From NCBI GenBank assembly GCA_964016885.1, contig OZ024741.1:38688001-38752000 (forward strand): a DNA stretch of 64,000 nt, given 5' to 3'. The stretch's first letter is position 1; each line of letters opens with the position of its first letter. Both the position numbers and the translations under genes were made by a program. The stretch is from Eledone cirrhosa. Taxonomy: Eukaryota. Of the stretch, positions 17,276 to 63,494 are shown piece after piece. The notes beneath the pieces were generated by a model that saw nothing but the letters and a program-made list of their open reading frames with translations, ran no database searches and had not been told where the DNA came from.

Positions 17276-17279
17276 GAAA

Positions 17280-42149: not shown

Positions 42150-44003
42150 ATATCTATCTTTCTTTATTTGCCACAAGGGCGCACAAAAAATGGGACATTA
42201 CAAGACGTGACGGCGGAGGTTTTACATAAAAATCATATAACATTAATAAATAACAATAAACTATATATAAAATAAAATAACAATTGAAACGTTACTGCGG
42301 GGTTCTTTTACACCCCGTAGATAGAACAACTCTCCACACCAGGAGCACGTTTTGTAGGTGTTCCCTCTTCCCTCTATTTGTGTTCTTCAACCTACAGGTT
42401 TATATACAGAGAAGGCCCATTAACTCGGGCCATCTTCGCCACATTCACCCACCTTTCGGCGAATTTACTGGGGTGTAGCACCTCTCTCTCCACTCTCACC
42501 TTCCTTCTGAAGTGGTACTTAAAGAAGGGGATGAGCTGCTGTCCGGAGAGAAAGGTTTTTGTCCTCAGTCCTTTTAACTTCGTCCACCATATTACCTCTT
42601 TCGCCATAGCCACCAGACAGAGGAAAACCGCCTCTCCTTCGTTCTTAAATGAAGGCGACGGAGTGATCCTCACGATGGACTCGGCTGACAACTGAATTTG
42701 TCCGACACCTGACAGTAGCTGTTCGACATAATTCCACAGGTCGTTCACCCCTGGGCACAGAACAATTGCGTGCAGAACGGTTCCGATGCCCTACTCGCAT
42801 CTTGCTCAGGTACTTTTGGCAAGATCTCTGCAAGGGCGTCCGTGTCTGTAAAATTTTTCTCGAACTGGTAGAGCTCCTCGGTAGCCGTGTCAGGCCAGAG
42901 ACCTCTGGAAGTTATCTATAGGCCCTGGACGGAAAGTCCTCCCGAACAGACTGCTCAGTTCGCCCTCCTCGATGCCTAGAGTTTCCCCGAGAACGTCGTC
43001 GCACTTATCCTCCACTATTCCCCTATAGAATGTCGAAGTGGAGTCTCCGCTGATTGCCGTTTCTGCTTGGTAGAGGGCTGTGAGCGCTTGTAGGCACTCG
43101 AGGTGCCAGGCACCCATTTTCGGTCTTCGCTTGACCCAGGACTGCAGCTCTGTTAGTGAGACGAGTTGTGGAAGAGCTTGTCTCACAAACGACAGCCACA
43201 CCGGTTCACTGGTCAGGAATACCTGGAGATGGCGCAGCCTCAGCGCGTGTTTGTGCCACGGCATGCCCATCCCTCCGTTAGAAGGGTGTTGACAGCAGAT
43301 AGATCTCTTCACTAATGGAGCCTGTTTCTTCCAGAGGAACTTGAAGAGTAGGCGTTCCATTTTGGTAAGTTATTCGCGGGGGCAAGGCACCACTGTCAAG
43401 CGGTATTAGATGACGGACGCTATGTAAGTGTTCACCACCTCCGCTCGACCTTTCAAGGAGAGTTTGCACTCAGCCCACTTCTGGGTGAGTGCTAACACCT
43501 TCGCCGTGACCTCGTTCCAGTTCTTGTCCACCAGGAGATCTGAACCAAACCAGACCCCAAGCAATTTCACCGGTCCTTCCGTCCAGCGTCCAACGACACT
43601 GTTGGAAGGCATGGGTTTCCCTCTCCATGTGCCGAGTTGCAAACCAACAGACTTATTTGGGTTTAGTCTTGTTCTTGTCAACGTTTCGTATTCCTGTAAT
43701 AGGTTGCCGATTACCCCGATTTCCGAGGTTTTCGACACCATTGCGGTTATGTCGTCGGCATAGGCCGACGTTGCTTTCCGCAGTCCTGGTTCCGCAGTAA
43801 CGGCTCGAGAGTCAGTACATACAGAATGGAGGAGAGAGGGCATGCCTGACGGATGAAACGCATGATTTGGAATGGCTCTGATAGGTAGCCATTCGCCTTG
43901 ACTGCCGAGCAGATGCTGGTGTGCATTGCAGCGATCCAGCCTCTGAAGATGGGACCGAAACCCGCCGCCTTGAGAACTGCTTCCATGTATTGATGATCGA
44001 CCT
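42150..44003 (-). mobile_element. Tx1-clade LINE copy A: older subfamily, 5'-truncated in RT, decayed
   Basis: ORF pieces with SAYADD, KLSLKGRAEV and RVNGPSLYINL. The 3' end has AATAAA and a degenerate GATA/TATC flank. Confidence 0.9.
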
Positions 44004-44242
44004 TAAAGATGATCGCTTAAAGACGATCCTTAAAGATGATTGATCTTAAAGATGATCGCTTTTAAAGAGCACCGACATGCTCCCGTACTGCTTGGCCCTC
44101 TGGAGGTAAGCAATATCTGGCATTGCCTCTTTTATCTGGCATTGCCTCTACCGTGCCATTGCTTAAAGCCATCGGTTTCTTGGTTTGCGAGCAGATCGTC
44201 CGGAAGAAAATTGTTTTTCTTAAGGTCGCGGCTCCAATTTCC

Positions 44243-44688
44243 GGGGTGATCCTCACGATGGACTCGGTTGACAACTGAATGCGTCCCATACGTGACAGTA
44301 GCTGTTTGACATAATTCCACATGTTGGTCACCTCTGTGCACTGAACAATTGCGTGCAGAACGGTTTCGATGTCCTACTCGCATCTTGGACAGGTCATTTT
44401 GGCAGGATCTCTGCCAGGGCGTCCGAGATTTTGTCTCGAACTGGTAGAGCTCCTCAGTAGCACTACCAGGCCAGAGACCTCTGGAAGTTATCCATAGGCC
44501 CTGGACGGAAAGTCCTCCCGAACAGACTGGTCAGTTCGTCCTGCTCGATGCCTAGAGTGTCCCCGAGAACGTCGTCGCACTTATCCTCCAATAATCCCCT
44601 ATAGAACGTCGAAGTGGAGTCTCCGCTGTTTGCCGTTTCCGCTTGGTAAAGGGCTGTGAGCGCCTGTAGGCTCTCTCTCTCTCTCGAG
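44243..44688 (-). mobile_element. Tx1 copy B: internal 3'-region fragment similar to copy A
   Basis: Parallels ~42660-43100. Its 5' junction abuts (GATA)n. Confidence 0.85.
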
Positions 44689-44707
44689 ATAGATAGATAG
44701 ATAGATG

Positions 44708-44768
<61 letters not shown>
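44687..44768. repeat. (GATA)n microsatellite, ~20 units
   Basis: Direct observation. Forms the junction between copies B and C. Confidence 0.97.
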
Positions 44769-44999
44769 ATTTCTATTTATTTGCCACGAGGGCACAAAAG
44801 AAGGGGACATTTACACAGTGGGGGAGTTTACATAAATCGAGTAAAGAAAAAAGGAATAACAATAATAATATAACAATAAAAAGTCCTCAAAAGGGAGGGG
44901 GCGTGTTGGGGATTGCACATACCCCCGAAAAGTGTGCAACTCTTTTCGCGGGGGAAGCCCAGAGAGGAGGCGCTCCCCCTTTCCTCTTCACTTCTTCAC

Positions 45000-47900
45000 C
45001 TACAGAACAATGTAGAGAGAAGGCCCATTTACACGGGCCATTCTCGCTTCTTTCACCCGCCTTTCATAAAACTGTCTGGGGCCAAGCACTTCTCTCTCCA
45101 TCCTGATCCTTCTTCCGAAGTGGTATCGGAAGAAGTAAACCAGGTGATGGCCGGAGAGAAAGTCACCCGACCTCAGACCTTTCAGGCGCGTCCACCACAC
45201 AACCTCTTTCATCATGGCTATTACGCACAGAAAGACCGCCTCTGCTTCATTTCTGAAGGGAGGAGGCGGCTTGATGTTCACCACAGACTCGGCGGTTAAT
45301 CGAATCGGCGCCACACGCGACAGCAGTCGTTCGACGTAGCCCCACAGATCGGCAACGCCCGGGCAGTGTACCAGTGCATGCGCAACGGTTTCCTCGTCGC
45401 GCACGCATCTGGGACAGATCTTTTTCGCGGGATCCCTGCCCGGGCGCCCGTGTCTGTAGAGCTTTTCTCGAACGGGCAGAGCCCCCCGGTAACACTGCCA
45501 GGCTAGGGACCTCTGGAAGTTGTCCATGGGTCCCGGGCCGAAAGTTCTACCGAACAGGCTGGCCAGTTCGTCCTCCTCCATGCCTAGCGACTCTCCAAGG
45601 GTGTCGTCGCCCCTGCTAGCCACCAACCCTCTATAGAATGTCGAGGTGGATTCTCCACTGACAGTCGGGTCCGCTTGCCAGATAGCCGTGAGCGCCTGGG
45701 CACACTCGGTGTGCCAGTTGCCCAGTTTTCTCGGTCTTTGCTTCACCCAGGATTGCAGTTCGGTGAGCGAGACGAGCTGTGGGAAGGCTCGCCTCACAAA
45801 CGGGGCCCACACCGGCTGACCGTTGAGGAATACCTGTAGATGCCGTAGCCTCAATGCGTGCCTACGCATCAACAGCCACGGCATACCCAGCCCTCCTTTC
45901 GAAGGGTGCTGGCAGCAGATGGATCTCCTCACCATGGGAGGCCGCTTCTTCCAGAGGAACTGGAAGAGCATGCGTTCCATGATGGTGAGCTTTTCCTTAG
46001 GGCAAGGCACGACGGTCAGGCGGTAGTAGATGACGGACGCTATGTAAGCGTTCGTCACCTCCGCCCGACCTTTCAGTGATAGTTTGCACTTGGCCCACTT
46101 CTGGGTCAGCGCAAACACCCTGCTCGTCACCTCGCCCCAATTCTTCTCCACCTGGAGGTCCGGTCCGAACCAGACCCCGAGCAGCTTCACCGGGCCCTCC
46201 GTCCACCGCCCGACGACACCGTCTAACGGCATCGGTTTGCCCCTCCACGTTCCGAGTTGCAAACCGACTGACTTGTCCTGGTTCAGCTTAGCCCCCGTCA
46301 GCCTTTCGTATTCCTCCAGTAGGGTGGCGATCGCCCCGATTTCCGAGGCGTCCGCCACCATTACTGTTACGTCGTCGGCAGAGGCCGAGACCGCTTTGTG
46401 CAATCCCGGTTCCAGGGGTATGCCCCGCAGCAACTCCAACTTCCGCAGCAGTGGCTCGAGAGTCAATACGTACAGAAGGGAGGAGAGGGGGCACCCCTGT
46501 CTGATGGATCGGGTGATTTGAAACGGCTCCGAGAGGTAGCCGTTTACTTTAATCCTAGAGTAGATGATGCCACTGTGCATGGCAGAAATCCAGCCCCTGA
46601 AAACGGGTCCGAAGCCCGCCGCCGCTAGCACCGCATCCAGGTAACCATGGTCGACCCTATCGAACGCCTTAGATTGATCCAAGTTGATCAGGGCCCCACC
46701 AAAGCCGGGTTCGTAGCCAACCCTCTCTATGATGTATCGCATGAGGTGGAGGTTGTCGTGAATGGACCTGGACGGGATAGCGCATGTCTGCGCGTCTCCC
46801 ACCAAACCACCCACCACAAGCGCCAACCTCTTCGCCAACACCTTGGCCAAAATCTGTAACTCTGCATTCAGCAGAGTTATGGGCCTAAAGTTACTTAAGT
46901 CGTCCCCCTTGCTCTCGTCCTTCCTCACTAGCGTGACCACGCCCTTGGTCACAGAACAGGGAATTCTCCCGTTCTGTTGCCAGTTGCAATAGACAGCCTC
47001 GAGGAGTTCGGAGAACAAGACCGGCATAGCTAAATAAAGTTCGTATGGTAGACCATCGAGACCCGGGGATTTGCGTCTGCTGCATTGGCTGAGCGCTTCC
47101 CCGATTTCAGTGGCTGTGATTGGCCTTTCGCAGCACTCCGCTTCGCCGCTCGAAAGACGCGGTAGACCGTCGAGGTATGGACCGAAGTCCACATCCCCGT
47201 CCGGCCCCCCGCCACCTCCGAACAGTCGAGCAAAGTGCCTTTGAAAGGTCTCGCACATTCGCTCAGGTTCAAGGATCACCCGTCCATCCTGGTCTCGCAA
47301 AGACCGAATGGTGGATTTAATCCCACTCTTGGCTTCTGTCACGCGGGCCCAGCTAACAGCTTTGGTCCCCTCGTTTCCTAAAGCACGTATTTTACTTCGG
47401 ACAACGCAGCCTTCGTGCTTCGCGTCAAAGAACTGGCTCAATGCCGTTCTCGTCGCTAACACTCTGGCTACGTCTCCGCTCCTAATCGCCTCTTCTAGTT
47501 TATCTGTTAACTCCCTTTCCTTCCTATTTCTATTCGCCGCTAGTTCCTTACTGTAACCTATCGAACTTACTCTAATCTCTCTCTTTAGAGATACCCACCA
47601 CCTACTGTTGACGATCGCTCCCGTCAACCGGATCTTAACTAAGCTACTAATCCGGTTTCTGTAATCTTTCTTTGTCGGTAAGGACAAGTTCATCTTCCAG
47701 TAACCGGGACCCTGTCTATGCGTTCTATCAAGGTTGACCACGCAGGTCACTAATTTGTGATCTGAATAGCCAACCATGATCAGTTCTGGACAACTAAATA
47801 CGTCCCTATCCTTACTCCTAACCAAAAACCTATCTAGGTACGATCTAGATTGTCCACTGCGGTTTGCCCAGGTCCAGGTTGGCGCAGTTGGACAATCTAG

Positions 47901-48418
47901 TCGAAATCTATCGACCAGGTCGAATCGATCGAGTAACCCCTTGAGGCTGCTACACCCCCCTCTATCGGGACATGCCCCTGCATAGTCCCAACGCGCATCT
48001 AGGATTCCATTCCAGTCCCCCACTAAAAGCAGGGAACGCGACGTTCCTAGAAAAGTCTCCAGACGCTGGAAGAAGTCGGCTCTTTCCGCCCCGAAGGGAG
48101 CATAAAGACCGACCAGTCTGAAAGCCCCGCCTTCACCGCCTCCGACGTCCAGCACCAGTAATCGACCCCCCGGGTCCGAGTGAACAATCTGTACGTCGAG
48201 AGTCAGACGTTTATCCAGCAGTACGGCAACTCCCCCCCCCGCCTCCGGGTTGACAGAGAGATGCGTGCATCTCAAAGTCATCGAAGGCGGGCGCCAGCTG
48301 TCTCACGCTGCTGATCCGACTCTCGCAAACAACCATCACATCTATACTTTGTGACCTGAGGTCACTTAGAAGCTTTGCTTGCTTCCAAGCTGAGCGCGTT
48401 CAAACAGCCAACTCTCAA
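45000..48418 (-). pseudogene. ORF2 (APE-RT-CCHC) of copy C, disrupted
   Basis: GDWN, SDH, KAFDRVDH, QGCPLS, ASADD, CPRC..H..HC. Confidence 0.9.
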
Positions 48419-48423
48419 TTGAT

Positions 48424-50256
48424 CTATTTTGGTGTTGAAAGTGAAGAAAGAAAAGCACTTACCTCTCCGGGTTGCGTAATTTCCATGGCATCAGGTGTGT
48501 TGGGTGGAGGGATGTTTTGTGGTGGTGTGGGGGTACACGTGTGTGGTGGGGTTGGGGTATTTGGAGTTGTGTCAGGGAGAGGGGCGGTTATGGGGAAATC
48601 TTTCAAGAGGACGCGATTCAACGGTTTTAAACAGGGGGGGCTCACGTCCCGTCTAAATTGTTCTTTTAAGGAACGATAAAGGTCCAGAGGGACCTTTATC
48701 ATTTTTAAATGGGTGAAGTTCTCTGTTGAGATAAAGTTTGGCCCTTCGGTCTGCACCATAGGGTTATTGTTTATTAATTTAACCAGTTTTTTGTTTTCTT
48801 TATTTATATATGTGTATTGCAACGTCTTTTTTTGTGATGCTGTCAATGTTTCGGAGAGGGGAGGCGCAGATTTATTTTTGTTTGTTGAGGGTGGGGTGTT
48901 TTTGATTGGAGTTGGTGTTTGTGTGTGGGTTATTTGTGGTGTGCTGGGTGTGTGTTTTCTTTTTTTTCTTTTAACTTGTCTGAAGGCTTCTCCTCCTTCT
49001 TCTTCAGAAGTTGGGGAAACTCTTCAGCGCTAGGTGGGAGGGACGTGTTGTGTGGTTGTTTTTTTTTTTGCGGGAGGGGTAGATTTGTTACTGTTTTTTT
49101 TATTATTTGTTTGGAATGGGTTTTGTGGTGGTGGTGGTAATGTTTGTGTCGTGCTTGTGGTTGGTGATGGTGGTGGTGATGTTTGTGTTGTGGTTGGTGG
49201 TGGTGATTTTTGTGTCGTGCTTGTGTTTGGTGCTGGTGGTGGTGATGTTTGTGTTGTGTTTGTGGTTGGTGGTGTCTGTATTTTGTTTGCTGTGTGTGGT
49301 ATTAGTGTATTTTTGGAGGTGGGTGGTGTTGGTGTACTGTTTGTGGTGGGTGTGGGTAATAGTCCTTTTTGGGGGATACGTTTCGGGCAGTTAGCCTTAA
49401 CGTGTCCCCTTTCCATGCATAAATAGCATGCTGGTCTTCTCCCCTCTACAATTATGTCTATTGGGGTAAGGTCATCCAGCCAGATGCGATCCGGGATTTG
49501 TGCTATTCTTTCGGGCCTCATTTGGACTAGTATGTCGAGGCCCATTCCCAGGAACGCATCTCCAGTTGCCTTCCCCATTGACAGCATTGAGTCTTCGCCC
49601 ATATCAATGAAGCCAGCAATAGCCCACCAGAAGTCCATTGTGGGCAGCATTGTTTTTACTTTTACTCTCTGTGTTCTTCTACCCAAGTAGGAGGGATAGA
49701 AGCTATATGTTGTCGATGAGAGTGGGCTTAGGGAAAGCTTCTCCGCCGTTTCTTTGTCTCGTGTTAGGACCGAAATGCTGCCATAGAGTCGGTCCTTTCG
49801 TATGAAGAGAATATTCTTCATATAGTCTTTTAGGACTAACTCTATTTCCATTTGGCTGGGCTGTGCTGGCTTTCTTGTCTGGTTGAGTATAGTTCTGTAG
49901 AGAACTGTGTTTTCTGCTCTGGCTTTCTTGAATTCAGGGGGGGAGTTAATGGAAAACATTCCGTTCTCCCCCAAAACAATGTGTTTCTTTGCTTCGGCCA
50001 GTTTTTCTCTGGCGGCAGTTAGGTCAATTGGTGTGTATGTAATGGATTGTTTTGTTTTCTGGGCGAAAGTTGCCCTGTCGTTATTTGTATTATTTTCTGT
50101 TTGTTTGTTTTCTGTTTGCTCATTTTCCTTAACATTTGTTTTATCATTTTCTTTGTTTGTTTCAATGTCTAATTTTGTTGTAATTATTTTTTGTTCTTCA
50201 GACTTGGGGGGCGTGGCAGAGCTAATGGCAGACATGTCTGCCGTCTTTTCCGCCAT
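48424..50256 (-). pseudogene. ORF1 of copy C, frameshifted
   Basis: Split into 49030-50283 and 48424-48846, versus the intact ORF1 in copies D and F. Confidence 0.85.
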
Positions 50257-50711
50257 GCTGCCAAGAAAGAAATTTTTCGGCAAAAATAGATATTTATTTT
50301 ACCCCCTAAAAAGGGGGTAAATGCAAAAATGTTTCCCTAAATAACAGGGGTTAGTGTTCCAAATGTGTTGCACTAAAAAATTTATCCGGTACTTACAATA
50401 GTAAGGGTAAATCCCGATGGAATAGCGGAGCCGATGCGAAGCGTGTCTTACTCTATCAAGATAGATAGATAGATAGATAAATTTCTATTTATTTGCCACG
50501 AGGGCACAAAAGAAGGGGACATTTACACAGTGGGGGAGTTTACATAAATCGAGTAAAGAAAAAAGGAATAACAATAATAATATAACAATAAAAAGTCCTC
50601 AAAAGGGAGGGGGCGTGTTGGGGATTGCACATACCCCCGAAAAGTGTGCAACTCTTTTCGCGGGGGAAGCCCAGAGAGGAGGCGCTCCCCCTTTCCTCTT
50701 CACTTCTTCAC

Positions 50712-53700
50712 CTACAGAACAATGTAGAGAGAAGGCCCATTTACACGGGCCATTCTCGCTTCTTTCACCCACCTTTCATAAAACTGTCTGGGACCAAGCA
50801 CTTCTCTCTCCATCCTGATTCTTCTTCCGAAGTGGTATCGGAAGAAGTAAACCAGGTGATGGCCGGAGAGAAAGTCACCCGACCTCAGACCTTTCAGGCG
50901 CGTCCACCACACAACCTCTTTCATCATGGCTATTACGCAGAGAAAGACCGCCTCTGCTTCATTTCTGAAGGGAGGAGGCGGCTTGATGTTCACCACAGAC
51001 TCGGCGGTTAATCGAATCGGCGCCACACGCGACAGCAGTCGTTCGACGTAGCCCCACAGATCGGCAACGCCCGGGCAGTGTACCAGTGCATGCGCAACGG
51101 TTTCCTCGTCGCGCACGCATCTGGGACAGATCTTTTTCGCGGGATCCCTGCCCGGGCGCCCGTGTCTGTAGAGCTTTTCTCGAACGGGCAGAGCCCCCCG
51201 GTAACACTGCCAGGCTAGGGACCTCTGGAAGTTGTCCATGGGTCCCGGGCCGAAAGTTCTACCGAACAGGCTGGCCAGTTCGTCCTCCTCCATGCCTAGC
51301 GACTCTCCAAGGGTGTCGTCGCCCCTGCTAGCCACCAACCCTCTATAGAATGTCGAGGTGGATTCTCCACTGACAGTCGGGTCCGCTTGCCAGATAGCCG
51401 TGAGCGCCTGGGCACACTCAGTGTGCCAGTTGCCCAGTTTTCTCGGTCTTTGCTTCACCCAGGATTGCAGTTCGGTGAGCGAGACGAGCTGTGGGAAGGC
51501 TCGCCTCACAAACGGGGCCCACACCGGCTGACCGTTGAGGAATACCTGTAGATGCCGTAGCCTCAATGCGTGCCTACGCATCAACAGCCACGGCATACCC
51601 AGCCCTCCTTTCGAAGGGTGCTGGCAGCAGATGGATCTCCTCACCATGGGAGGCCGCTTCTTCCAGAGGAACTGGAAGAGCATGCGTTCCATGATGGTGA
51701 GCTTTTCCTTGGGGCAAGGCACGACGGTCAGGCGGTAGTAGATGACGGACGCTATGTAAGCGTTCGTCACCTCCGCCCGACCTTTCAGTGATAGTTTGCA
51801 CTTGGCCCACTTCTGGGTCAGCGCAAACACCCTGCTCGTCACCTCGCCCCAATTCTTCTCCACCTGGAGGTCCGGTCCGAACCAGACCCCGAGCAGCTTC
51901 ACCGGGCCCTCCGTCCACCGCCCGACGACACCGTCTAACGGCATCGGTTTGCCCCTCCACGTTCCGAGTTGCAAACCGACTGACTTGTCCTGGTTCAGCT
52001 TAGCCCCCGTCAGCCTTTCGTATTCCTCCAGTAGGGTGGCGATCGCCCCGATTTCCGAGGCGTCCGCCACCATTACTGTTACGTCGTCGGCATAGGCCGA
52101 GACCGCTTTGTGCAATCCCGGTTCCAGGGGTATGCCCCGCAGCAACTCCAACTTCCGCAGCAGTGGCTCGAGAGTCAATACGTACAGAAGGGAGGAGAGG
52201 GGGCACCCCTGTCTGATGGATCGGGTGATTTGAAACGGCTCCGAGAGGTAGCCGTTTACTTTAATCCTAGAGTAGATGTTGCCACTGTGCATGGCAGAAA
52301 TCCAGCCCCTGAAAACGGGTCCGAAGCCCGCCGCCGCTAGCACCGCATCCAGGTAACCATGGTCGACCCTATCGAACGCCTTAGATTGATCCAAGTTGAT
52401 CAGGGCCCCACCAAAGCCGGGTTCGTAGCCAACCCTCTCTATGATGTATCGCATGAGGTGGAGGTTGTCGTGAATGGACCTGGACGGGATAGCGCATGTC
52501 TGCGCGTCTCCCACCAAACCACCCACCACAAGCGCCAACCTCTTCGCCAACACCTTGGCCAAAATCTGTAACTCTGCATTCAGCAGAGTTATGGGCCTAA
52601 AGTTACTTAAGTCGTCCCCCTTGCTCTCGTCCTTCCTCACTAGCGTGACCACGCCCTTGGTCACAGAACAGGGAATTCTCCCGTTCTGTTGCCAGTTGCA
52701 ATAGACAGCCTCGAGGAGTTCGGAGAACAAGACCGGCATAGCTAAATAAAGTTCGTATGGTAGACCATCGAGACCCGGGGATTTGCGTCTGCTGCATTGG
52801 CTGAGCGCTTCCCCGATTTCAGTGGCTGTGATTGGCCCTTCGCAGCACTCCGCTTCGCCGCTCGAAAGACGCGGTAGACCGTCGAGGTATGGACCGAAGT
52901 CCACATCCCCGTCCGGCCCCCCGCCACCTCCGAACAGTCGAGCAAAGTGCCTTTGAAAGGTCTCGCACATTCGCTCAGGTTCAAGGATCACCCGTCCATC
53001 CTGGTCTCGCAAAGACCGAATGGTGGATTTAATTCCACTCTTGGCTTCTGTCACGCGGGCCCAGCTAACAGCTTTGGTCCCCTCGTTTCCTAAAGCACGT
53101 ATTTTACTTCGGACAACGCAGCCTTCGTGCTTCGCGTCAAAGAACTGGCTCAATGCCGTTCTCGTCGCTAACACTCTGGCTACGTCTCCGCTCCTAATCG
53201 CCTCTTCTAGTTTATCTGTTAACTCCCTTTCCCTCCTATTTCTATTCGCCGCTAGTTCCTTACTGTAACCTATCGAACTTACTCTAATCTCTCTCTTTAG
53301 AGATATCCACCACCTACTGTTGACGATCGCTCCCGTCAACCGCATCTTAACTAAGCTACTAATCCGGTTTCTGTAATCTTTCTTTGTCGGTAAGGACAAG
53401 TTCATCTTCCAGTAACCGGGACCCTGTCTATGCGTTCTATCAAGGTTGACCACGCAGGTCACTAATTTGTGATCTGAATAGCCAACCATGATCAGTTCTG
53501 GACAACTAAATACGTCCCTATCCTTACTCCTAACCAAAAACCTATCTAGGTACGATCTAGATTGTCCACTGCGGTTTGCCCAGGTCCAGGTTGGCGCAGT
53601 TGGACAATCTAGTCGAAATCTATCGACCAGGTCGAATCGATCGAGTAACCCCTTGAGGCTGCTACACCCCCCTCTATCGGGACATGCCCCTGCATAGTCC

Positions 53701-54145
53701 CAACGCGCATCTAGGATTCCATTCCAGTCCCCCACTAAAAGCAGGGAACGCGACGTTCCTAGAAAAGTCTCCAGACGTTGGAAGAAGTCGGCTCTCTCCG
53801 CCCCGAAGGGAGCATAAAGACCGACCAGTCTGAAAGCCCCGCCTTCACCACCTCCGACGTCCAGCACCAGTAATCGACCCCCCGGGTCCGAGTGAACAAT
53901 CTGTACGTCGAGAGTCAGACGTTTATCCAGCAGTACGGCAACTCCCCCCCCCCCCCGCCTCCGGGTTGACAGAGAGATGCGTGCATCTCAAAGTCATCGA
54001 AGGCGGGCGCCAGCTGTCTCACGCTGCTGATCCGACTCTCGCAAACAACCATCACATCTATACTTTGTGACCTGAGGTCACTTAGAAGCTTTGCTTGCTT
54101 CCAAGCTGAGCTCAGGCCACGCGCGTTCAAACAGCCAACTCTCAA
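50712..54145 (-). CDS. ORF2 (APE endonuclease, RT, CCHC) of copy D, one homopolymer frameshift
   Basis: ORF pieces 53915-54145 and 50712-53867. YADD intact. Confidence 0.85.
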
Positions 54146-54150
54146 TTGAT

Positions 54151-55986
54151 CTATTTTGGTGTTGAAAGTGAAGAAAGAAAAGCACTTACCTCTCCGGGTT
54201 GCGTAATTTCCATGGCATCAGGTGTGTTGGGTGGAGGGATGTTTTGTGGTGGTGTGGGGGTACACGTGTGTGGTGGGGTTGGGGTATTTGGAGTTGTGTC
54301 AGGGAGAGGGGCGGTTATGGGGAAATCTTTCAAGAGGACGCGATTCAACGGTTTTAAACAGGGGGGGCTCACGTCCCGTCTAAATTGTTCTTTTAAGGAA
54401 CGATAAAGGTCCAGAGGGACCTTTATCATTTTTAAATGGGTGAAGTTCTCTGTTGAGATAAAGTTTGGCCCTTCGGTCTGCACCATAGGGTTATTGTTTA
54501 TTAATTTAACCAGTTTTTTGTTTTCTTTATTTATATATGTGTATTGCAACGTCTTTTTTTGTGATGCTGTCAATGTTTCGGAGAGGGGAGGCGCAGATTT
54601 ATTTTTGTTTGTTGAGGGTGGGGTGTTTTTGATTGGAGTTGGTGTTTGTGTGTGGGTTATTTGTGGTGTGCTGGGTGTGTGTTTTCTTTTTTTTCTTTTA
54701 ACTTGTCTGAAGGCTTCTCCTCCTTCTTCTTCAGAAGTTGGGGGAAACTCTTCAGCGCTAGGTGGGAGGGACGTGTTGTGTGGTTGTTTTTTTTTTGCGG
54801 GAGGGGTAGATTTGTTACTGTTTTTTTTATTATTTGTTTGGAATGGGTTTTGTGGTGGTGGTGGTGGTAATGTTTGTGTCGTGCTTGTGGTTGGTAATGG
54901 TGGTGGTGATGTTTGTGTTGTGGTTGGTGGTGGTGATTTTTGTGTCGTGCTTGTGTTTGGTGCTGGTGGTGGTGATGTTTGTGTTGTGTTTGTGGTTGGT
55001 GGTGTCTGTATTTTGTTTGCTGTGTGTGGTATTAGTGTATTTTTGGAGGTGGGTGGTGCTGGTGTACTGTTTGTGGTGGATGTGGGCAATAGTCCTTTTT
55101 GGGGGATACGTTTCGGGCAGTTAGCCTTAACGTGTCCCCTTTCCATGCATAAATAGCATGCTGGTCTTCTCCCCTCTACAATTATGTCTATTGGGGTAAG
55201 GTCATCCAGCCAGATGCGATCCGGGATTTGTGCTATTCTTTCGGGCCTCATTTGGACTAGTATATCGAGGCCCATTCCCAGGAACGCATCTCCAGTTGCC
55301 TTCCCCATTGACAGCATAGTGTCTTCGCCCATATCAATGAAGCCAGCAATAGCCCACCAGAAGTCCATTGTGGGCAGCATTGTTTTTACTTTTATTCTCT
55401 GTGTTCTTCTACCCATGTAGGAGGGATAGAAGCTATATGTTGTCGACGAGAGTGGGCTTAGGGAAAGCTGAACCGCCGTTTCTTTGTCTCTTGTTAGGAC
55501 CGAAATGCTGCCATAGAGTCGGTCCTTTCGTATGAAGAGAATATTCTTCATATAGTCTTTTAGGACTAACTCTATTTCCATTTGGCTGGGCTGTGCTGGC
55601 TTTCTTGACTGGTTTAGTATAGTTCTGTATATAACTGTGTTTTCTGCTCTGGCTTTCTTGAATTCTGGGGGGGAGTTAATGGAAAACATTCCGTTCTCCC
55701 CCAAAACAATATGTTTCTTTGCTTCGGCCAGTTTTTCTCTGGCGGCAGTTAGGTCAATTGGTGTGTATGTAATGGATTGCTTTGTTTTCTGGGCGAAAGT
55801 TGCCCTGTCGTTATTTGTATTATTTTCTGTTTGTTTGTTTTCTGTTTGCTCATTTTCCTTAACATTTGTTTTTTCATTTTGTTTGTTTGTTTCAATGTCT
55901 AATTTTGTTGTAATTATTTTTTGTTCTTCAGACTTGGGGGGCGTGGCAGAGCTAATGGCAGACATGTCTGCCATCTTTTCCGCCAT
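54151..55986 (-). CDS. ORF1 (gag-like, CCHC knuckle, Pro/Thr-rich tail) of copy D
   Basis: First ATG at 55986 (MAEKMAD). CYLCMERGHVKANC = CX2CX4HX4C. Basic patch KRKKRK. Confidence 0.92.
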   Translation of the reverse strand: MAEKMADMSAISSATPPKSEEQKIITTKLDIETNKQNEKTNVKENEQTENKQTENNTNNDRATFAQKTKQSITYTPIDLTAAREKLAEAKKHIVLGENGMFSINSPPEFKKARAENTVIYRTILNQSRKPAQPSQMEIELVLKDYMKNILFIRKDRLYGSISVLTRDKETAVQLSLSPLSSTTYSFYPSYMGRRTQRIKVKTMLPTMDFWWAIAGFIDMGEDTMLSMGKATGDAFLGMGLDILVQMRPERIAQIPDRIWLDDLTPIDIIVEGRRPACYLCMERGHVKANCPKRIPQKGLLPTSTTNSTPAPPTSKNTLIPHTANKIQTPPTTNTTQTSPPPAPNTSTTQKSPPPTTTQTSPPPLPTTSTTQTLPPPPPQNPFQTNNKKNSNKSTPPAKKKQPHNTSLPPSAEEFPPTSEEEGGEAFRQVKRKKRKHTPSTPQITHTQTPTPIKNTPPSTNKNKSAPPLSETLTASQKKTLQYTYINKENKKLVKLINNNPMVQTEGPNFISTENFTHLKMIKVPLDLYRSLKEQFRRDVSPPCLKPLNRVLLKDFPITAPLPDTTPNTPTPPHTCTPTPPQNIPPPNTPDAMEITQPGEVSAFLSSLSTPK

Positions 55987-56197
55987 GCTGCCAAGAAAGA
56001 AATTTTTCGGCAAAAATAGATATTTATTTTACCCCCTAAAAAGGGGGTAAATGCAAAAATGTTTCCCTAAATAACAGGGGTTAGTGTTCCAAATGTGTTG
56101 CACTAAAAAATTTATCCGGTACTTACAATAGTAAGGGTAAATCCCGATGGAATAGCGGAGCCGATGCGAAGCGTGTCTTACTCTATCAAGATAGATA

Positions 56198-56941
56198 TAT
56201 TTCTTTATTAGCCACAGGGGCACAAAAGAAGGGGACAAATACAAAGGGGGAAGTTTACATACAATAAAAACGTGTAAAATGTTATCACAGATGGAATTTA
56301 AAAGTTAGTCGATTTTCCCCAATAGAGGGAGACAGTTTATATGGGTAACACAGACCCCCGAAAAAAATGTGCAACCCTCATCTCCAGGAGTACGAAGAGC
56401 TTGTACTCCTTTCCTCTCCTCCTCCTTTTCCTCAACCTACAGGCTGATATAGAGAGAAGGCCCATTCACTCGGGCCATTCTCGCCACTTTCACCCACCTT
56501 TCATAAAACTTGCTGGGGTACAGCACCTCTCTCTCCATCCTGATTCTTCTTCCAAAGTGGTATTTGAAAAAAAGAATCAGTTGTTGGCCGGAGAGAAAGG
56601 TGTCTGACCTCAGCCCTTTCAACCTTGTCCACCATACAACCTCTTTCGCCATAGCTATCACACAAAGGAAAACCGCCTCTCCTTCGTTTTTGAAGGAGGG
56701 TGGCGGTTTGATCATGACAATGGACTCGGTGGTCAACTGGATTGGTCCCACCCGCGACAATAGTCGTTCCACATAGCCCCACAGGTCAGTGACGCCCGGG
56801 CAGTGTATGAATGCGTGCGCGACGGTTTCTTCGTCTCGCACGCACCTCGGACAGATCTTTTTTGCAGGGTCCCTGCCCGGGCGCCCATGTCTGTAGAGCT
56901 TGTCTCGAACTGGTAGAGCTCCTCGGTAGCACTGCCAGGCC
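56198..56941 (-). mobile_element. Tx1 copy E: 5'-truncated 0.74-kb 3' end of a third subfamily
   Basis: ORF 56437-56841 is homologous to the ORF2 C-terminus. Distinct 3' UTR. GATA at both junctions. Confidence 0.92.
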
Positions 56942-57190
56942 AGATAGATAGATAGATAAATTTCTATTTATTTGCCACGAGGGCACAAAAGAAGGGGACA
57001 TTTACACAGTGGGGGAGTTTACATAAATCGAGTAAAGAAAAAAGGAATAACAATAATAATATAACAATAAAAAGTCCTCAAAAGGGAGGGGGCGTGTTGG
57101 GGATTGCACATACCCCCGAAAAGTGTGCAACTCTTTTCGCGGGGGAAGCCCAGAGAGGAGGCGCTCCCCCTTTCCTCTTCACTTCTTCAC

Positions 57191-60100
57191 CTACAGAACA
57201 ATGTAGAGAGAAGGCCCATTTACACGGGCCATTCTCGCTTCTTTCACCCACCTTTCATAAAACTGTCTGGGACCAAGCACTTCTCTCTCCATCCTGATTC
57301 TTCTTCCGAAGTGGTATCGGAAGAAGTAAACCAGGTGATGGCCGGAGAGAAAGTCACCCGACCTCAGACCTTTCAGGCGCGTCCACCACACAACCTCTTT
57401 CATCATGGCTATTACGCACAGAAAGACCGCCTCTGCTTCATTTCTGAAGGGAGGAGGCGGCTTGATGTTCACCACAGACTCGGCGGTTAATCGAATCGGC
57501 GCCACACGCGACAGCAGTCGTTCGACGTAGCCCCACAGATCGGCAACGCCCGGGCAGTGTACCAGTGCATGCGCAACGGTTTCCTCGTCGCGCACGCATC
57601 TGGGACAGATCTTTTTCGCGGGATCCCTGCCCGGGCGCCCGTGTCTGTAGAGCTTTTCTCGAACGGGCAGAGCCCCCCGGTAACACTGCCAGGCTAGGGA
57701 CCTCTGGAAGTTGTCCATGGGTCCCGGGCCGAAAGTTCTACCGAACAGGCTGGCCAGTTCGTCCTCCTCCATGCCTAGCGACTCTCCAAGGGTGTCGTCG
57801 CCCCTGCTAGCCACCAACCCTCTATAGAATGTCGAGGTGGATTCTCCACTGACAGTCGGGTCCGCTTGCCAGATAGCCGTGAGCGCCTGGGCACACTCAG
57901 TGTGCCAGTTGCCCAGTTTTCTCGGTCTTTGCTTCACCCAGGATTGCAGTTCGGTGAGCGAGACGAGCTGTGGGAAGGCTCGCCTCACAAACGGGGCCCA
58001 CACCGGCTGACCGTTGAGGAATACCTGTAGATGCCGTAGCCTCAATGCGTGCCTACGCATCAACAGCCACGGCATACCCAGCCCTCCTTTCGAAGGGTGC
58101 TGGCAGCAGATGGATCTCCTCACCATGGGAGGCCGCTTCTTCCAGAGGAACTGGAAGAGCATGCGTTCCATGATGGTGAGCTTTTCCTTGGGGCAAGGCA
58201 CGACGGTCAGGCGGTAGTAGATGACGGACGCTATGTAAGCGTTCGTCACCTCCGCCCGACCTTTCAGTGATAGTTTGCACTTGGCCCACTTCTGGGTCAG
58301 CGCAAACACCCTGCTCGTCACCTCGCCCCAATTCTTCTCCACCTGGAGGTCCGGTCCGAACCAGACCCCGAGCAGCTTCACCGGGCCCTCCGTCCACCGC
58401 CCGACGACACCGTCCAACGGCATCGGTTTGCCCCTCCACGTTCCGAGTTGCAAACCGACCGACTTGTCCTGGTTCAGCTTAGCCCCCGTCAGCCTTTCGT
58501 ATTCCTCCAGTAGGGTGGCGATCGCCCCGATTTCCGAGGCGTCCGCCACCATTACTGTTACGTCGTCGGCATAGGCCGAGACCGCTTTGTGCAATCCCGG
58601 TTCCAGGGGTATGCCCCGCAGCAACTCCAACTTCCGCAGCAGTGGCTCGAGAGTCAATACGTACAGAAGGGAGGAGAGGGGGCACCCCTGTCTGATGGAT
58701 CGGGTGATTTGAAACGGCTCCGAGAGGTAGCCGTTTACTTTAATCCTAGAGTAGATGTTGCCACTGTGCATGGCAGAAATCCAGCCCCTGAAAACGGGTC
58801 CGAAGCCCGCCGCCGCTAGCACCGCATCCAGGTAACCATGGTCGACCCTATCGAACGCCTTAGATTGATCCAAGTTGATCAGGGCCCCACCAAAGCCGGG
58901 TTCGTAGCCAACCCTCTCTATGATGTATCGCATGAGGTGGAGGTTGTCGTGAATGGACCTGGACGGGATAGCGCATGTCTGCGCGTCTCCCACCAAACCA
59001 CCCACCACAAGCGCCAACCTCTTCGTCAACACCTTGGCCAAAATCTGTAACTCTGCATTCAGCAGAGTTATGGGCCTAAAGTTACTTAAGTCGTCCCCCT
59101 TGCTCTCGTCCTTCCTCACTAGCGTGACCACGCCCTTGGTCACAGAACAGGGAATTCTCCCGTTCTGTTGCCAGTTGCAATAGACAGCCTCGAGGAGTTC
59201 GGAGAACAAGACCGGCATAGCTAAATAAAGTTCGTATGGTAGACCATCGAGACCCGGGGATTTGCGTCTGCTGCATTGGCTGAGCGCTTCCCCGATTTCA
59301 GTGGCTGTGATTGGCCCTTCGCAGCACTCCGCTTCGCCGCTCGAAAGACGCGGTAGACCGTCGAGGTATGGACCGAAGTCCACATCCCCGTCCGGCCCCC
59401 CGCCACCTCCGAACAGTCGAGCAAAGTGCCTTTGAAAGGTCTCGCACATTCGCTCAGGTTCAAGGATCACCCGTCCATCCTGGTCTCGCAAAGACCGAAT
59501 GGTGGATTTAATCCCACTCTTGGCTTCTGTCGCGCGGGCCCAGCTAACAGCTTTGGTCCCCTCGTTTCCTAAAGCACGTATTTTACTTCGGACAACGCAG
59601 CCTTCGTGCTTCGCGTCAAAGAACTGGCTCAATGCCGTTCTCGTCGCTAACACTCTGGCTACGTCTCCGCTCCTAATCGCCTCTTCTAGTTTATCTGTTA
59701 ACTCCCTTTCCCTCCTATTTCTATTCGCCGCTAGTTCCTTACTGTAACCTATCGAACTTACTCTAATCTCTCTCTTTAGAGATACCCACCACCTGCTGTT
59801 GACGATCGCTCCCGTCAACCGCATCTTAACTAAGCTACTAATCCGGTTTCTGTAATCTTTCTTTGTCGGTAAGGACAAGTTCATCTTCCAGTAACCGGGA
59901 CCCTGTCTATGCGTTCTATCAAGGTTGACCACGCAGGTCACTAATTTGTGATCTGAATAGCCAACCATGATCAGTTCTGGACAACTAAATACGTCCCTAT
60001 CCTTACTCCTAACCAAAAACCTATCTAGGTACGATCTAGATTGTCCACTGCGGTTTGCCCAGGTCCAGGTTGGCGCAGTTGGACAATCTAGTCGAAATCT

Positions 60101-60619
60101 ATCGACCAGGTCGAATCGATCGAGTAACCCCTTGAGGCTGCTACACCCCCCTCTATCGGGACATGCCCCTGCATAGTCCCAACGCGCATCTAGGATTCCA
60201 TTCCAGTCCCCCACTAAAAGCAGGGAACGCGACGTTCCTAGAAAAGTCTCCAGACGTTGGAAGAAGTCGGCTCTCTCCGCCCCGAAGGGAGCATAAAGAC
60301 CGACCAGTCTGAAAGCCCCGCCTTCACCACCTCCGACGTCCAGCACCAGTAATCGACCCCCCGGGTCCGAGTGAACAATCTGTACGTCGAGAGTCAGACG
60401 TTTATCCAGCAGTACGGCAACTCCCCCCCCGCCTCCGGGTTGACAGAGAGATGCGTGCATCTCAAAGTCATCGAAGGCGGGCGCCAGCTGTCTCACGCTG
60501 CTGATCCGACTCTCGCAAACAACCATCACATCTATACTTTGTGACCTGAGGTCACTTAGAAGCTTTGCTTGCTTCCAAGCTGAGCTCAGGCCACGCGCGT
60601 TCAAACAGCCAACTCTCAA
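57191..60619 (-). CDS. ORF2: APE endonuclease, reverse transcriptase and CCHC zinc finger (non-AUG start)
   Basis: LRVGCLNARGL, VCES, GVA, YAP, GDWN, LDR, SDH; KSPGLDG, FRPITLLN, DQSKAFDRV, QGCPLS, YADD, LLGVWF; CPRC-X8-H-X4-C. Confidence 0.96.
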   Translation of the reverse strand: MRVGCLNARGLSSAWKQAKLLSDLRSQSIDVMVVCESRISSVRQLAPAFDDFEMHASLCQPGGGGGVAVLLDKRLTLDVQIVHSDPGGRLLVLDVGGGEGGAFRLVGLYAPFGAERADFFQRLETFLGTSRSLLLVGDWNGILDARWDYAGACPDRGGCSSLKGLLDRFDLVDRFRLDCPTAPTWTWANRSGQSRSYLDRFLVRSKDRDVFSCPELIMVGYSDHKLVTCVVNLDRTHRQGPGYWKMNLSLPTKKDYRNRISSLVKMRLTGAIVNSRWWVSLKREIRVSSIGYSKELAANRNRRERELTDKLEEAIRSGDVARVLATRTALSQFFDAKHEGCVVRSKIRALGNEGTKAVSWARATEAKSGIKSTIRSLRDQDGRVILEPERMCETFQRHFARLFGGGGGPDGDVDFGPYLDGLPRLSSGEAECCEGPITATEIGEALSQCSRRKSPGLDGLPYELYLAMPVLFSELLEAVYCNWQQNGRIPCSVTKGVVTLVRKDESKGDDLSNFRPITLLNAELQILAKVLTKRLALVVGGLVGDAQTCAIPSRSIHDNLHLMRYIIERVGYEPGFGGALINLDQSKAFDRVDHGYLDAVLAAAGFGPVFRGWISAMHSGNIYSRIKVNGYLSEPFQITRSIRQGCPLSSLLYVLTLEPLLRKLELLRGIPLEPGLHKAVSAYADDVTVMVADASEIGAIATLLEEYERLTGAKLNQDKSVGLQLGTWRGKPMPLDGVVGRWTEGPVKLLGVWFGPDLQVEKNWGEVTSRVFALTQKWAKCKLSLKGRAEVTNAYIASVIYYRLTVVPCPKEKLTIMERMLFQFLWKKRPPMVRRSICCQHPSKGGLGMPWLLMRRHALRLRHLQVFLNGQPVWAPFVRRAFPQLVSLTELQSWVKQRPRKLGNWHTECAQALTAIWQADPTVSGESTSTFYRGLVASRGDDTLGESLGMEEDELASLFGRTFGPGPMDNFQRSLAWQCYRGALPVREKLYRHGRPGRDPAKKICPRCVRDEETVAHALVHCPGVADLWGYVERLLSRVAPIRLTAESVVNIKPPPPFRNEAEAVFLCVIAMMKEVVWWTRLKGLRSGDFLSGHHLVYFFRYHFGRRIRMEREVLGPRQFYERWVKEARMARVNGPSLYIVL

Positions 60620-60624
60620 TTGAT

Positions 60625-62460
60625 CTATTTTGGTGTTGAAAGTGAAGAAAGAAAAGCACTTACCTCTCCGGGTTGCGTAATTTCCATGGCATCAGGTGTG
60701 TTGGGTGGAGGGATGTTTTGTGGTGGTGTGGGGGTACACGTGTGTGGTGGGGTTGGGGTATTTGGAGTTGTGTCAGGGAGAGGGGCGGTTATGGGGAAAT
60801 CTTTCAAGAGGACGCGATTCAACGGTTTTAAACAGGGGGGGCTCACGTCCCGTCTAAATTGTTCTTTTAAGGAACGATAAAGGTCCAGAGGGACCTTTAT
60901 CATTTTTAAATGGGTGAAGTTCTCTGTTGAGATAAAGTTTGGCCCTTCGGTCTGCACCATAGGGTTATTGTTTATTAATTTAACCAGTTTTTTGTTTTCT
61001 TTATTTATATATGTGTATTGCAACGTCTTTTTTTGTGATGCTGTCAATGTTTCGGAGAGGGGAGGCGCAGATTTATTTTTGTTTGTTGAGGGTGGGGTGT
61101 TTTTGATTGGAGTTGGTGTTTGTGTGTGGGTTATTTGTGGTGTGCTGGGTGTGTGTTTTCTTTTTTTTCTTTTAACTTGTCTGAAGGCTTCTCCTCCTTC
61201 TTCTTCAGAAGTTGGGGGAAACTCTTCAGCGCTAGGTGGGAGGGACGTGTTGTGTGGTTGTTTTTTTTTTGCGGGAGGGGTAGATTTGTTACTGTTTTTT
61301 TTATTATTTGTTTGGAATGGGTTTTGTGGTGGTGGTGGTGGTAATGTTTGTGTCGTGCTTGTGGTTGGTAATGGTGGTGGTGATGTTTGTGTTGTGGTTG
61401 GTGGTGGTGATTTTTGTGTCGTGCTTGTGTTTGGTGCTGGTGGTGGTGATGTTTGTGTTGTGTTTGTGGTTGGTGGTGTCTGTATTTTGTTTGCTGTGTG
61501 TGGTATTAGTGTATTTTTGGAGGTGGGTGGTGCTGGTGTACTGTTTGTGGTGGATGTGGGCAATAGTCCTTTTTGGGGGATACGTTTCGGGCAGTTAGCC
61601 TTAACGTGTCCCCTTTCCATGCATAAATAGCATGCTGGTCTTCTCCCCTCTACAATTATGTCTTTTGGGGTAAGGTCATCCAGCCAGATGCGATCCGGGA
61701 TTTGTGCTATTCTTTCGGGCCTCATTTGGACTAGTATATCGAGGCCCATTCCCAGGAACGCATCTCCAGTTGCCTTCCCCATTGACAGCATAGTGTCTTC
61801 GCCCATATCAATGAAGCCAGCAATAGCCCACCAGAAGTCCATTGTGGGCAGCATTGTTTTTACTTTTATTCTCTGTGTTCTTCTACCCATGTAGGAGGGA
61901 TAGAAGCTATATGTTGTCGACGAGAGTGGGCTTAGGGAAAGCTGAACCGCCGTTTCTTTGTCTCTTGTTAGGACCGAAATGCTGCCATAGAGTCGGTCCT
62001 TTCGTATGAAGAGAATATTCTTCATATAGTCTTTTAGGACTAACTCTATTTCCATTTGGCTGGGCTGTGCTGGCTTTCTTGACTGGTTTAGTATAGTTCT
62101 GTATATAACTGTGTTTTCTGCTCTGGCTTTCTTGAATTCTGGGGGGGAGTTAATGGAAAACATTCCGTTCTCCCCCAAAACAATATGTTTCTTTGCTTCG
62201 GCCAGTTTTTCTCTGGCGGCAGTTAGGTCAATTGGTGTGTATGTAATGGATTGCTTTGTTTTCTGGGCGAAAGTTGCCCTGTCGTTATTTGTATTATTTT
62301 CTGTTTGTTTGTTTTCTGTTTGCTCATTTTCCTTAACATTTGTTTTTTCATTTTGTTTGTTTGTTTCAATGTCTAATTTTGTTGTAATTATTTTTTGTTC
62401 TTCAGACTTGGGGGGCGTGGCAGAGCTAATGGCAGACATGTCTGCCATCTTTTCCGCCAT
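60625..62460 (-). CDS. ORF1 (gag-like CCHC protein) of copy F
   Basis: ATG at 62460, zinc knuckle, stop TAG at 60625-60627. Confidence 0.93.
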   Translation of the reverse strand: MAEKMADMSAISSATPPKSEEQKIITTKLDIETNKQNEKTNVKENEQTENKQTENNTNNDRATFAQKTKQSITYTPIDLTAAREKLAEAKKHIVLGENGMFSINSPPEFKKARAENTVIYRTILNQSRKPAQPSQMEIELVLKDYMKNILFIRKDRLYGSISVLTRDKETAVQLSLSPLSSTTYSFYPSYMGRRTQRIKVKTMLPTMDFWWAIAGFIDMGEDTMLSMGKATGDAFLGMGLDILVQMRPERIAQIPDRIWLDDLTPKDIIVEGRRPACYLCMERGHVKANCPKRIPQKGLLPTSTTNSTPAPPTSKNTLIPHTANKIQTPPTTNTTQTSPPPAPNTSTTQKSPPPTTTQTSPPPLPTTSTTQTLPPPPPQNPFQTNNKKNSNKSTPPAKKKQPHNTSLPPSAEEFPPTSEEEGGEAFRQVKRKKRKHTPSTPQITHTQTPTPIKNTPPSTNKNKSAPPLSETLTASQKKTLQYTYINKENKKLVKLINNNPMVQTEGPNFISTENFTHLKMIKVPLDLYRSLKEQFRRDVSPPCLKPLNRVLLKDFPITAPLPDTTPNTPTPPHTCTPTPPQNIPPPNTPDAMEITQPGEVSAFLSSLSTPK

Positions 62461-62671
62461 GCTGCCAAGAAAGAAATTTTTCGGCAAAAATAGATATTTA
62501 TTTTACCCCCTAAAAAGGGGGTAAATGCAAAAATGTTTCCCTAAATAACAGGGGTTAGTGTTCCAAATGTGTTGCACTAAAAAATTTATCCGGTACTTAC
62601 AATAGTAAGGGTAAATCCCGATGGAATAGCGGAGCCGATGCGAAGCGTGTCTTACTCTATCAAGATAGATA

Positions 62672-63415
62672 TATTTCTTTATTAGCCACAGGGGCACAAA
62701 AGAAGGGGACAAATACAAAGGGGGAAGTTTACATACAATAAAAACGTGTAAAATGTTATCACAGATGGAATTTAAAAGTTAGTCGATTTTCCCCAATAGA
62801 GGGAGACAGTTTATATGGGTAACACAGACCCCCGAAAAAAATGTGCAACCCTCATCTCCAGGAGTACGAAGAGCTTGTACTCCTTTCCTCTCCTCCTCCT
62901 TTTCCTCAACCTACAGGCTGATATAGAGAGAAGGCCCATTCACTCGGGCCATTCTCGCCACTTTCACCCACCTTTCATAAAACTTGCTGGGGTACAGCAC
63001 CTCTCTCTCCATCCTGATTCTTCTTCCAAAGTGGTATTTGAAAAAAAGAATCAGTTGTTGGCCGGAGAGAAAGGTGTCTGACCTCAGCCCTTTCAACCTT
63101 GTCCACCATACAACCTCTTTCGCCATAGCTATCACACAAAGGAAAACCGCCTCTCCTTCGTTTTTGAAGGAGGGTGGCGGTTTGATCATGACAATGGACT
63201 CGGTGGTCAACTGGATTGGTCCCACCCGCGACAATAGTCGTTCCACATAGCCCCACAGGTCAGTGACGCCCGGGCAGTGTATGAATGCGTGCGCGACGGT
63301 TTCTTCGTCTCGCACGCACCTCGGACAGATCTTTTTTGCAGGGTCCCTGCCCGGGCGCCCATGTCTGTAGAGCTTGTCTCGAACTGGTAGAGCTCCTCGG
63401 TAGCACTGCCAGGCC
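62672..63415 (-). mobile_element. Tx1 copy G: duplicate of copy E with the same truncation point
   Basis: Same sequence as 56198-56941 at an offset of 6474. Followed by (GATA)n at 63416-63445. Confidence 0.93.
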
Positions 63416-63494
63416 AGATAGATAGATAGATAGATAGATTGATAGAAACAGAGGGGAGTGTGCAGTTGAGGAGGACCGTGTCTTTGTGATAGAG

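Follow-up and report, generated by a model that had tools for sequence, protein, structure and literature searches.

The window analyzed here, i.e., the whole 64,000-nucleotide (nt) stretch at positions 38,688,001 to 38,752,000 (forward strand) of contig OZ024741.1 in the Eledone cirrhosa assembly GCA_964016885.1, carries three full-length copies of a long interspersed nuclear element (LINE) of L1/Tx1 type, whose second open reading frame (ORF2) has no ATG ahead of its endonuclease motif. The element and its surroundings, in coordinates of the window, are as follows.

56959-62663, minus strand: copy 3, a full-length L1/Tx1-type LINE with both ORFs intact and (TATC)n flanks (ends ± a few bases)
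50480-56189, minus strand: copy 2, the tandem duplicate of copy 3, with its ATA at 54154-54152 and a poly-G frameshift in ORF2
44768-50459, minus strand: copy 1, decaying, with divergence raised in the 5' part of ORF1 and its ATA at 48427-48425
60625-62460, minus strand: ORF1 of copy 3, 611 amino acids (aa), C-terminus ...STPK followed by TAG
57191-60628, minus strand: ORF2 of copy 3 counted from ATA, 1145 aa, with apurinic/apyrimidinic-type endonuclease (APE), reverse transcriptase (RT) and zf-RVT
62675-63417, minus strand: 3' fragment, truncated at its 5' side, from a sister family of 76% identity; it shares the (TATC)n array and has a duplicate at ~56200-56943

Copies 2 and 3, together with the truncated sister-family fragment, make up one 6.5-kb tandem duplicate (99.8% identical), and (TATC)n adjoins all three head-to-tail copies as well as both sister-family fragments, all within a single array with duplicates. 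Among the three copies, both ORFs are intact in copy 3 only; copy 2 is damaged by the poly-G indel, and copy 1, which appears mosaic when the three are compared, by an 11-nt deletion directly after the ORF1/ORF2 junction, by ORF1 frameshifts and by a poly-G indel. With these two fragments counted in, three sister families (69-76% identical) have left 3' fragments in the window, at 42356-44005, 3583-4973, 56200-56943 and 62675-63417.

With its APE, RT and C-terminal zinc motif, ORF2 marks the element as an L1-group (L1/Tx1) non-LTR (long terminal repeat) retrotransposon. The Pfam domains PF03372 and PF00078 score above cutoff and PF13966 (zf-RVT) below its curated cutoff (E 2.8e-5), while the best relative of solved structure is human L1 ORF2p (E 9e-49), far above R2. 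ORF1 shows one weak zf-CCHC knuckle match (E 0.018, under the Pfam cutoff) and no match to an RNA recognition motif. The closest named proteins belong to Argonauta hians (59-63% identity). We use L1/Tx1-type as a probable label set by domains and anatomy, rather than as a strict Tx1 placement by RT tree; none of the matches from our homologue searches was a named Tx1 reference. No relatives of the element turned up in three scans of viral contigs, and 44000-62200 gave no Rfam match. A search of sequencing runs gave five runs with a match, from two studies and without an RNA run among those listed, which says nothing for or against expression. According to the literature, 13 L1-Tx1 families have been active recently in Octopus vulgaris (PMC13282606), and target-preferring Tx1 families sit in other microsatellites (PMC4494074).

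The junction between the two ORFs is where the element departs from its relatives, and three positions in copy 3 matter for what follows.

60626-60628, minus strand: ATA, the likely ORF2 start, in strong context (A at -3, G at +4); it lies where relatives have Met and shares bases with the ORF1 stop (A-TAG)
60617-60619, minus strand: TTG, the start codon named in the original prediction, aligned with a conserved Leu
60599-60601, minus strand: ORF2 residue 10, the Asn in the N-x-R-G motif of APE

The string CCA AAA TAG ATCAA TTG AGA GTT occurs exactly three times, always on the minus strand (48412-48432, 54139-54159 and 60613-60633), with none expected from 100 shuffles; the presence of the junction in all three full-length copies, as originally described, is thus borne out. 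The ATG is missing before the endonuclease motif in all three; as three separate cases they do not count, since copies 2 and 3 are one tandem duplicate. Equally correct were the statements that ORF2 lies in the -1 frame relative to ORF1 and is open for 24 codons upstream of TTG (from 60691, ending at 57191), and that its first ATG falls beyond the N-x-R-G motif (here NARG), at codon 35 (60526-60524). The open frame itself is within chance, as 21 open codons upstream of ATA are expected about one time in three, (61/64)^21. The original prediction had taken TTG as candidate start, and not the in-frame ATA that shares two of its bases with the ORF1 stop (60627-60625). The context of TTG is poor (C at -3, A at +4).

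Comparison with relatives points to ATA. In the closest full-length relative, A. hians P0178 (59% identity), the initiator Met stands 9 residues before the APE Asn and aligns with the window ATA (read as Ile), and a Leu kept throughout the close clade aligns with TTG. From 65 proteins of at least 36% identity, 28 fit the motif pattern; their APE Asn is residue 9 in 19, 10 in 6, 12 in 2 and 5 in 1, and in none of the 28 is it residue 7, as a start at TTG would have it. Many relative proteins come from automatic gene callers; hence, we gave more weight to DNA junctions. Here all 81 hits, which reduce to 14 distinct sequences from loci L003-L063 (some overlapping), show a true ATG, placed 8-11 codons upstream of the Asn; one junction survey that chose starts by an ATG-requiring pattern was not counted as evidence on this point. 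In the closest DNA family (44% identity, from arrays of eukaryote type in a bacterial genome bin) the ORF1 stop lies 14 nt before the ATG without any overlap, and the spacer has a stop in the ORF2 frame. The spacer of L022-L063 shows a TGA in the ORF1 frame that overlaps the ORF2 ATG as TGATG. In L003 the two ORFs overlap openly, yet the ATG is present. Two sorts of relatives were set aside, namely P0174 (66%, beginning with Leu at residue 30), for which a contig edge is possible, and the fused ORF1-ORF2 gene models from a fish, P0065 (~31%) and P0179, which are predictions; no protein of 2005-5000 aa came out of a weak search over that size range. In several distant ORF2 predictions of the L1 group the N-terminus is extended by hydrophobic residues, suggesting T-rich DNA upstream of the true start in many families. 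By its own terms, the original prediction would be refuted if most family members carried an ATG at this place; the comparison covered relatives at 31-59% identity, and these do carry it.

By alignment, then, ATA occupies the homologous position of the relatives' initiator AUG. With G in place of A at the changed base, ORF1 would extend by three codons to a TGA, and we infer that the loss of the AUG and the origin of the UAG go back to one and the same G-to-A change. We postulate that ORF2 is translated by termination-reinitiation at this AUA, a G-to-A descendant of AUG that overlaps the ORF1 stop as A-UAG; on the sequence evidence we give this reading about an even chance. Ribosomes finishing ORF1 would reinitiate at AUA, and the ORF2 protein would be made on its own rather than as a fusion. 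Overlaps in which stop and start share nucleotides, AUGA and UAAUG among them, are a known geometry of reinitiation, which asks for stop and start to overlap or to lie within ~20 nt of each other (PMC10275272); the overlap is present here, and it holds ATA in place of ATG in all three copies. Low-level near-cognate initiation may suffice, because ORF2p is needed in small amounts only (PMC3894237) and initiation of mammalian L1 ORF2 has been reported to be independent of its AUG (PMC5009743). The AUG-independent termination-reinitiation named in the original prediction survives in kind, while its site moves from TTG, aligned with the conserved Leu, to the ATA on the stop. Moreover, differences among the copies suggest that the ATA-bearing copies descend from selected templates that already had ATA, because synonymous changes are enriched among the ORF2 differences: 10/18 between copies 1 and 3 (p 0.004-0.03, depending on transition bias) and 12/21 over all three copies (p 0.001-0.015). 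Some points weigh against this picture. The synonymous excess could stem from gene conversion with ATG-bearing copies elsewhere; ATA is known from three related copies of one array; the Met of P0178 comes, at the protein level only, from a gene model flagged as partial; and in a broader homologue set 8 of 83 proteins have Asn at residue 7, equivalent to a start at TTG.

A further prediction is that the region around the start pairs with the distal end of ORF2, in a long-range structure that we call a clamp and whose arms are:

60609-60672, minus strand: predicted 5' arm (ORF1 end, pyrimidine tract, stop/start and first ORF2 codons)
57149-57215, minus strand: predicted 3' arm (last ORF2 codons, ORF2 stop and purine tract of the 3' untranslated region, UTR)

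The 60 nt around the start and 57215-57149, 3.4 kb apart, are complementary and would form a duplex of -56.4 kcal/mol, in which AUA lies opposite bases at and just before the ORF2 stop. The ORF2 end is the junction's best partner among 489 windows (the next, at -36.6, is 20 kcal/mol weaker), none of 100 shuffles of either arm did as well, and after adjustment for GC content the junction arm ranks first of 87 (z -4.6). Purine-rich tracts from two sister families reach -37 and -27 against the 5' arm, and a third -21, compared with -56 for its own arm. The 44%-identical family repeats this arrangement: the ORF2 end is the best partner in 6/6 subfamilies (-54 to -61 kcal/mol; at most 1/100 shuffles as good), the AUG is fully paired, and by protein alignment the codon register is the same (position sums 3432-3433 in relatives vs. 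3433-3435 in the window), with exchanged base pairs at shared positions between the two families. Of the 46 pairs in that family, 36 do not vary, 2 changed on both sides and 5 on one (the arm pairs of L043, with an indel, and L044, truncated, were dropped from pair counts), and arms match their own partners better than exchanged ones (p 0.01, kinship uncorrected).

The folding results include several that speak against the clamp. By raw energy the junction arm ranks only 14/87 in the window and 11/103 in L026 (rank 4 after GC adjustment), 4/46 pairs are broken in some relatives, and in L003 and L004 the pairing is not significant. When the whole 3.8-kb ORF2 region was folded, the minimum-energy structure of the single window copy did not contain the clamp, and that of 1/5 relatives did. 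In a 231+221-nt fold the clamp is the minimum-energy structure, yet its share of the ensemble is ~0.17-0.19; a wider fold loses it, and local hairpins and a second partner compete with it. We regard the modeled clamp as probably real, but as an alternative conformation. As to local structure, a hairpin over UAG is unstable across folding windows, a strong ORF1 hairpin lies at ~60870-60905 (minus strand), ~250 nt before the stop, and the fold of the junction region (601 nt) is more stable than those of 20 shuffles (z -4.5). In the proposed mechanism the start codon would be held in the predicted duplex with the ORF2 end, and the clamp likely keeps ORF2 closed until a ribosome on ORF1 unwinds the 5' arm, so that ORF2 synthesis would be both coupled and rationed. 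We found no description of an ORF2 start-to-stop clamp in L1/Tx1 elements in a search with Repbase reports, subscription papers and supplements outside its scope.

Splice-site motifs lie at the same places.

60658-60663, minus strand: 5' splice-donor motif GAG/GTAAGT, 35 nt before ATA, in phase 0 of ORF1
57191-57214, minus strand: acceptor-like pyrimidine tract and TGTAG/G, whose AG belongs to the ORF2 stop
62462-62600, minus strand: possible 5' UTR intron (motif only), from ATT/GTAAGT to a pyrimidine tract and CAG, 1 nt before the ORF1 ATG

Ahead of the start, a GT(A/G)AGT stands at 35 nt (window), 13 nt (closest family), 56 nt (L004/L005) and 88 nt (L006), and the ORF1 end of L003 has none; as L003-L006 are one group (68-100%), the donor is found in three lineages, the discovery case among them, against a chance background of 2-8% per element. 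It always stands at or near the ORF1 stop, so that ORF1p would be nearly whole after splicing; joined to the ORF2 end, ORF1 would finish as QPGE-VKK. In all four window subfamilies ORF2 ends in a pyrimidine tract and TGTAG, followed by G in three. We consider it possible, if rather doubtful, that splicing from this donor yields an ORF1-only mRNA as a parallel layer of control; it stays a lead because the closest relatives lack the same acceptor at their ORF2 stop and no spliced copy was seen (0/77 relative junction matches, from overlapping loci, and 0/3 window copies). Invariance of the donor within the relative family is not significant (83% of fourfold sites are invariant; 0.83^7 = 0.27). 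Copia elements make a spliced GAG-only RNA (PMC5580714) and human L1 has functional splice sites (PMC5860796), and the available text of a vertebrate L1 survey (PMC5381506) does not contain the word "splice". No description of a conserved ORF1-end donor in L1/Tx1 elements was found, Repbase, subscription papers and supplements lying outside the search. Fusion of the two ORFs by splicing was rejected for this element: removal of a 39-nt intron, from the donor to TAG/AT, leaves translation in the ORF1 frame, which then ends after Ile-Asn, and neither of the next two AGs leads into the ORF2 frame. As further observations, L004, L005 and L006 have the donor followed within ~30-60 nt by AATAG, as in the window; in L004/L005 removal of 29 nt, very short for an intron, would fuse ORF1 and ORF2 in frame; and around the ORF2 stop of L022-L063 a hairpin, GGGTCC-loop-GGACCC with TTAG or TTCG in the loop, comes before a second GT(A/G)AGT, a pyrimidine tract and AG.

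Other routes to ORF2 have to be weighed against reinitiation at AUA. The original prediction had put forward a -1 ribosomal frameshift at CCA-AAA-UAG that would give an ORF1-ORF2 fusion, and a P-site tRNA-Lys could indeed re-pair on A-AAA with the stop codon in the A site and the ORF2 frame at -1 and open; the open upstream frame, however, lies within chance. The consensus of a programmed -1 slippery heptamer is X XXY YYZ, and no such XXXYYYZ heptamer occurs in the last 23 codons of ORF1, which leaves single-tRNA re-pairing only. Local folds 3' of the shift site disagree between windows (pseudoknots were left out of the folding). Nor are A-AAA-UAG and the -1 overlap conserved: the site is found in 0/14 relative junction types, all of which have an ATG, the closest DNA family lacks the overlap and adds a stop in the ORF2 frame, and in close relatives ORF2 is a separate Met-initiated protein. 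We therefore hold frameshifting to be very improbable. Initiation at UUG, by reinitiation or on a spliced ORF2-only mRNA (5' UTR donor joined to TAG/AT, with AUA removed), has in its favor that the codon is in frame, 6 codons before the Asn, with the spacing of those 8/83 distant homologues, and that it follows a pyrimidine tract and TAG with a 5' UTR donor available. Its alignment with the conserved Leu, the lack of any such start in the 28 close proteins, the weak context and the want of spliced copies (0/3) speak against it, and we find it least probable of all.

The remaining two alternatives accept that AUG was lost. The change from ATG to ATA may have been a local inactivating mutation in the array founder only, with the copies made by DNA duplication or conversion and ORF2 hardly translated. 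The tandem origin of copies 2 and 3, the frameshifts in copies 1 and 2, the mosaic-like look of the copies and the ATG in every relative seen agree with this, as does a stretch of ~1065 nt around the junction without substitution between copies 1 and 3, which could be gene conversion. That gap is, however, not significant (p 0.10), the synonymous excess in ORF2 argues otherwise, and copy 3 is intact in both ORFs apart from this base, so that a chance hit there seems unlikely a priori; we rate local inactivation as unlikely overall. Alternatively, ADAR could edit the A of UAG, the third base of AUA, so that AUI would be read as AUG and the ORF1 stop as Trp, making ORF2 dependent on host editing. 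One edit would restore the state seen in relatives, the closest named of which are octopod, and the target A lies inside a helix of the ~60-nt imperfect duplex of the predicted clamp. In coleoids, editing commonly restores G-to-A changes (PMC6881472), preferred targets are young repeats and As with a 5' U (PMC9989829), and an AUA-to-AUI start is known for a tau circular RNA (PMC9825173); the high coleoid editing is, however, described for neural tissue, not for germ line (PMC6881472). Pairing of the target A varies from 0.03 to 0.98 with the folding window, and it is unpaired in the 3.8-kb fold and clamp-paired at no more than ~0.17. ADAR prefers an A opposite a C mismatch, whereas the target faces U in a 5-bp helix. 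Because this structural support is weak, editing appears quite improbable to us, and slightly more so its fuller form, an editing-gated retrotransposon in which the conserved clamp is the ADAR substrate and one edit both makes the ORF2 start and erases the ORF1 stop. If true, a host editing enzyme would license RT synthesis, mostly in highly editing tissue such as nerve, and an enzyme usually thought to restrain retroelements would switch one on.

Several further features were noted in the window and in the relative loci. A 16.5-kb satellite at 25031-41566 consists of ~690 copies of a 24-bp unit with telomere-like GGGTTA words and extreme G skew. By eye, three stretches look like remnants of other mobile elements: 15661-17294 (minus strand) an RT and GIY-YIG-like Penelope-type piece, 12740-13843 (minus strand) a transposase-like ORF and 10260-10865 (plus strand) a LINE RT fragment. 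Loci L022-L062 (G001) and L063-L064 (G002) are eukaryote-type LINE DNA inside two bacterial genome bins; G001 has dozens of head-to-tail copies of six subfamilies, spaced by ~6.4-6.8 kb, and its LINE arrays are likely host contamination. Conservation is high in the stretch that separates the G001 copies, and the target may lie there.

To return to reinitiation at AUA, how LINE ORF2 is translated is still called an open question (PMC3894237, PMC5009743). An intact natural element with AUA atop its ORF1 stop offers a compact test case, as four mechanisms predict four different N-termini, and the predicted clamp, whose register is shared by families of no more than 44% identity, points, along with the donor motif at the ORF1 end, to control of ORF2 at the RNA level. 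Both AUG-independent and coupled initiation of ORF2 are already known kinds of event. Among the systems comparable to ours, SART1 belongs to the R1 clade. Its UAAUG coupling (PMC3894237, PMC10275272) is likewise that of a non-LTR element with a stop/start overlap and an RNA structure affecting ORF2 initiation, but there a real AUG is used and the structure is local and downstream, while the window element overlaps as A-UAG, with AUGA-type geometry, and has its predicted pairing partner 3.4 kb off. The Tx1 families Kibi, in (TC)n, and Koshi, in (TTC)n (PMC4494074), share the L1/Tx1-type anatomy and the stacking of copies in a microsatellite; they differ in that the flank here is (TATC)n and the host likely octopod. 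The GAG-only subgenomic RNA of Ty1 and Copia (PMC5580714) offers a parallel in that a splice event could favor the structural protein over the enzyme, although these are LTR elements in which this was shown experimentally, unlike the present case, with motifs alone and the donor at the ORF1 end. Another parallel is human LINE-1 (PMC5009743, PMC5381506), likewise an L1-group bicistronic RNA with an APE-RT ORF2, the start of which need not be AUG. In human LINE-1, the AUG is kept after a short spacer and its dispensability was revealed by mutation, whereas the window element naturally lacks the AUG and combines a likely start on top of the stop with a predicted long-range clamp.

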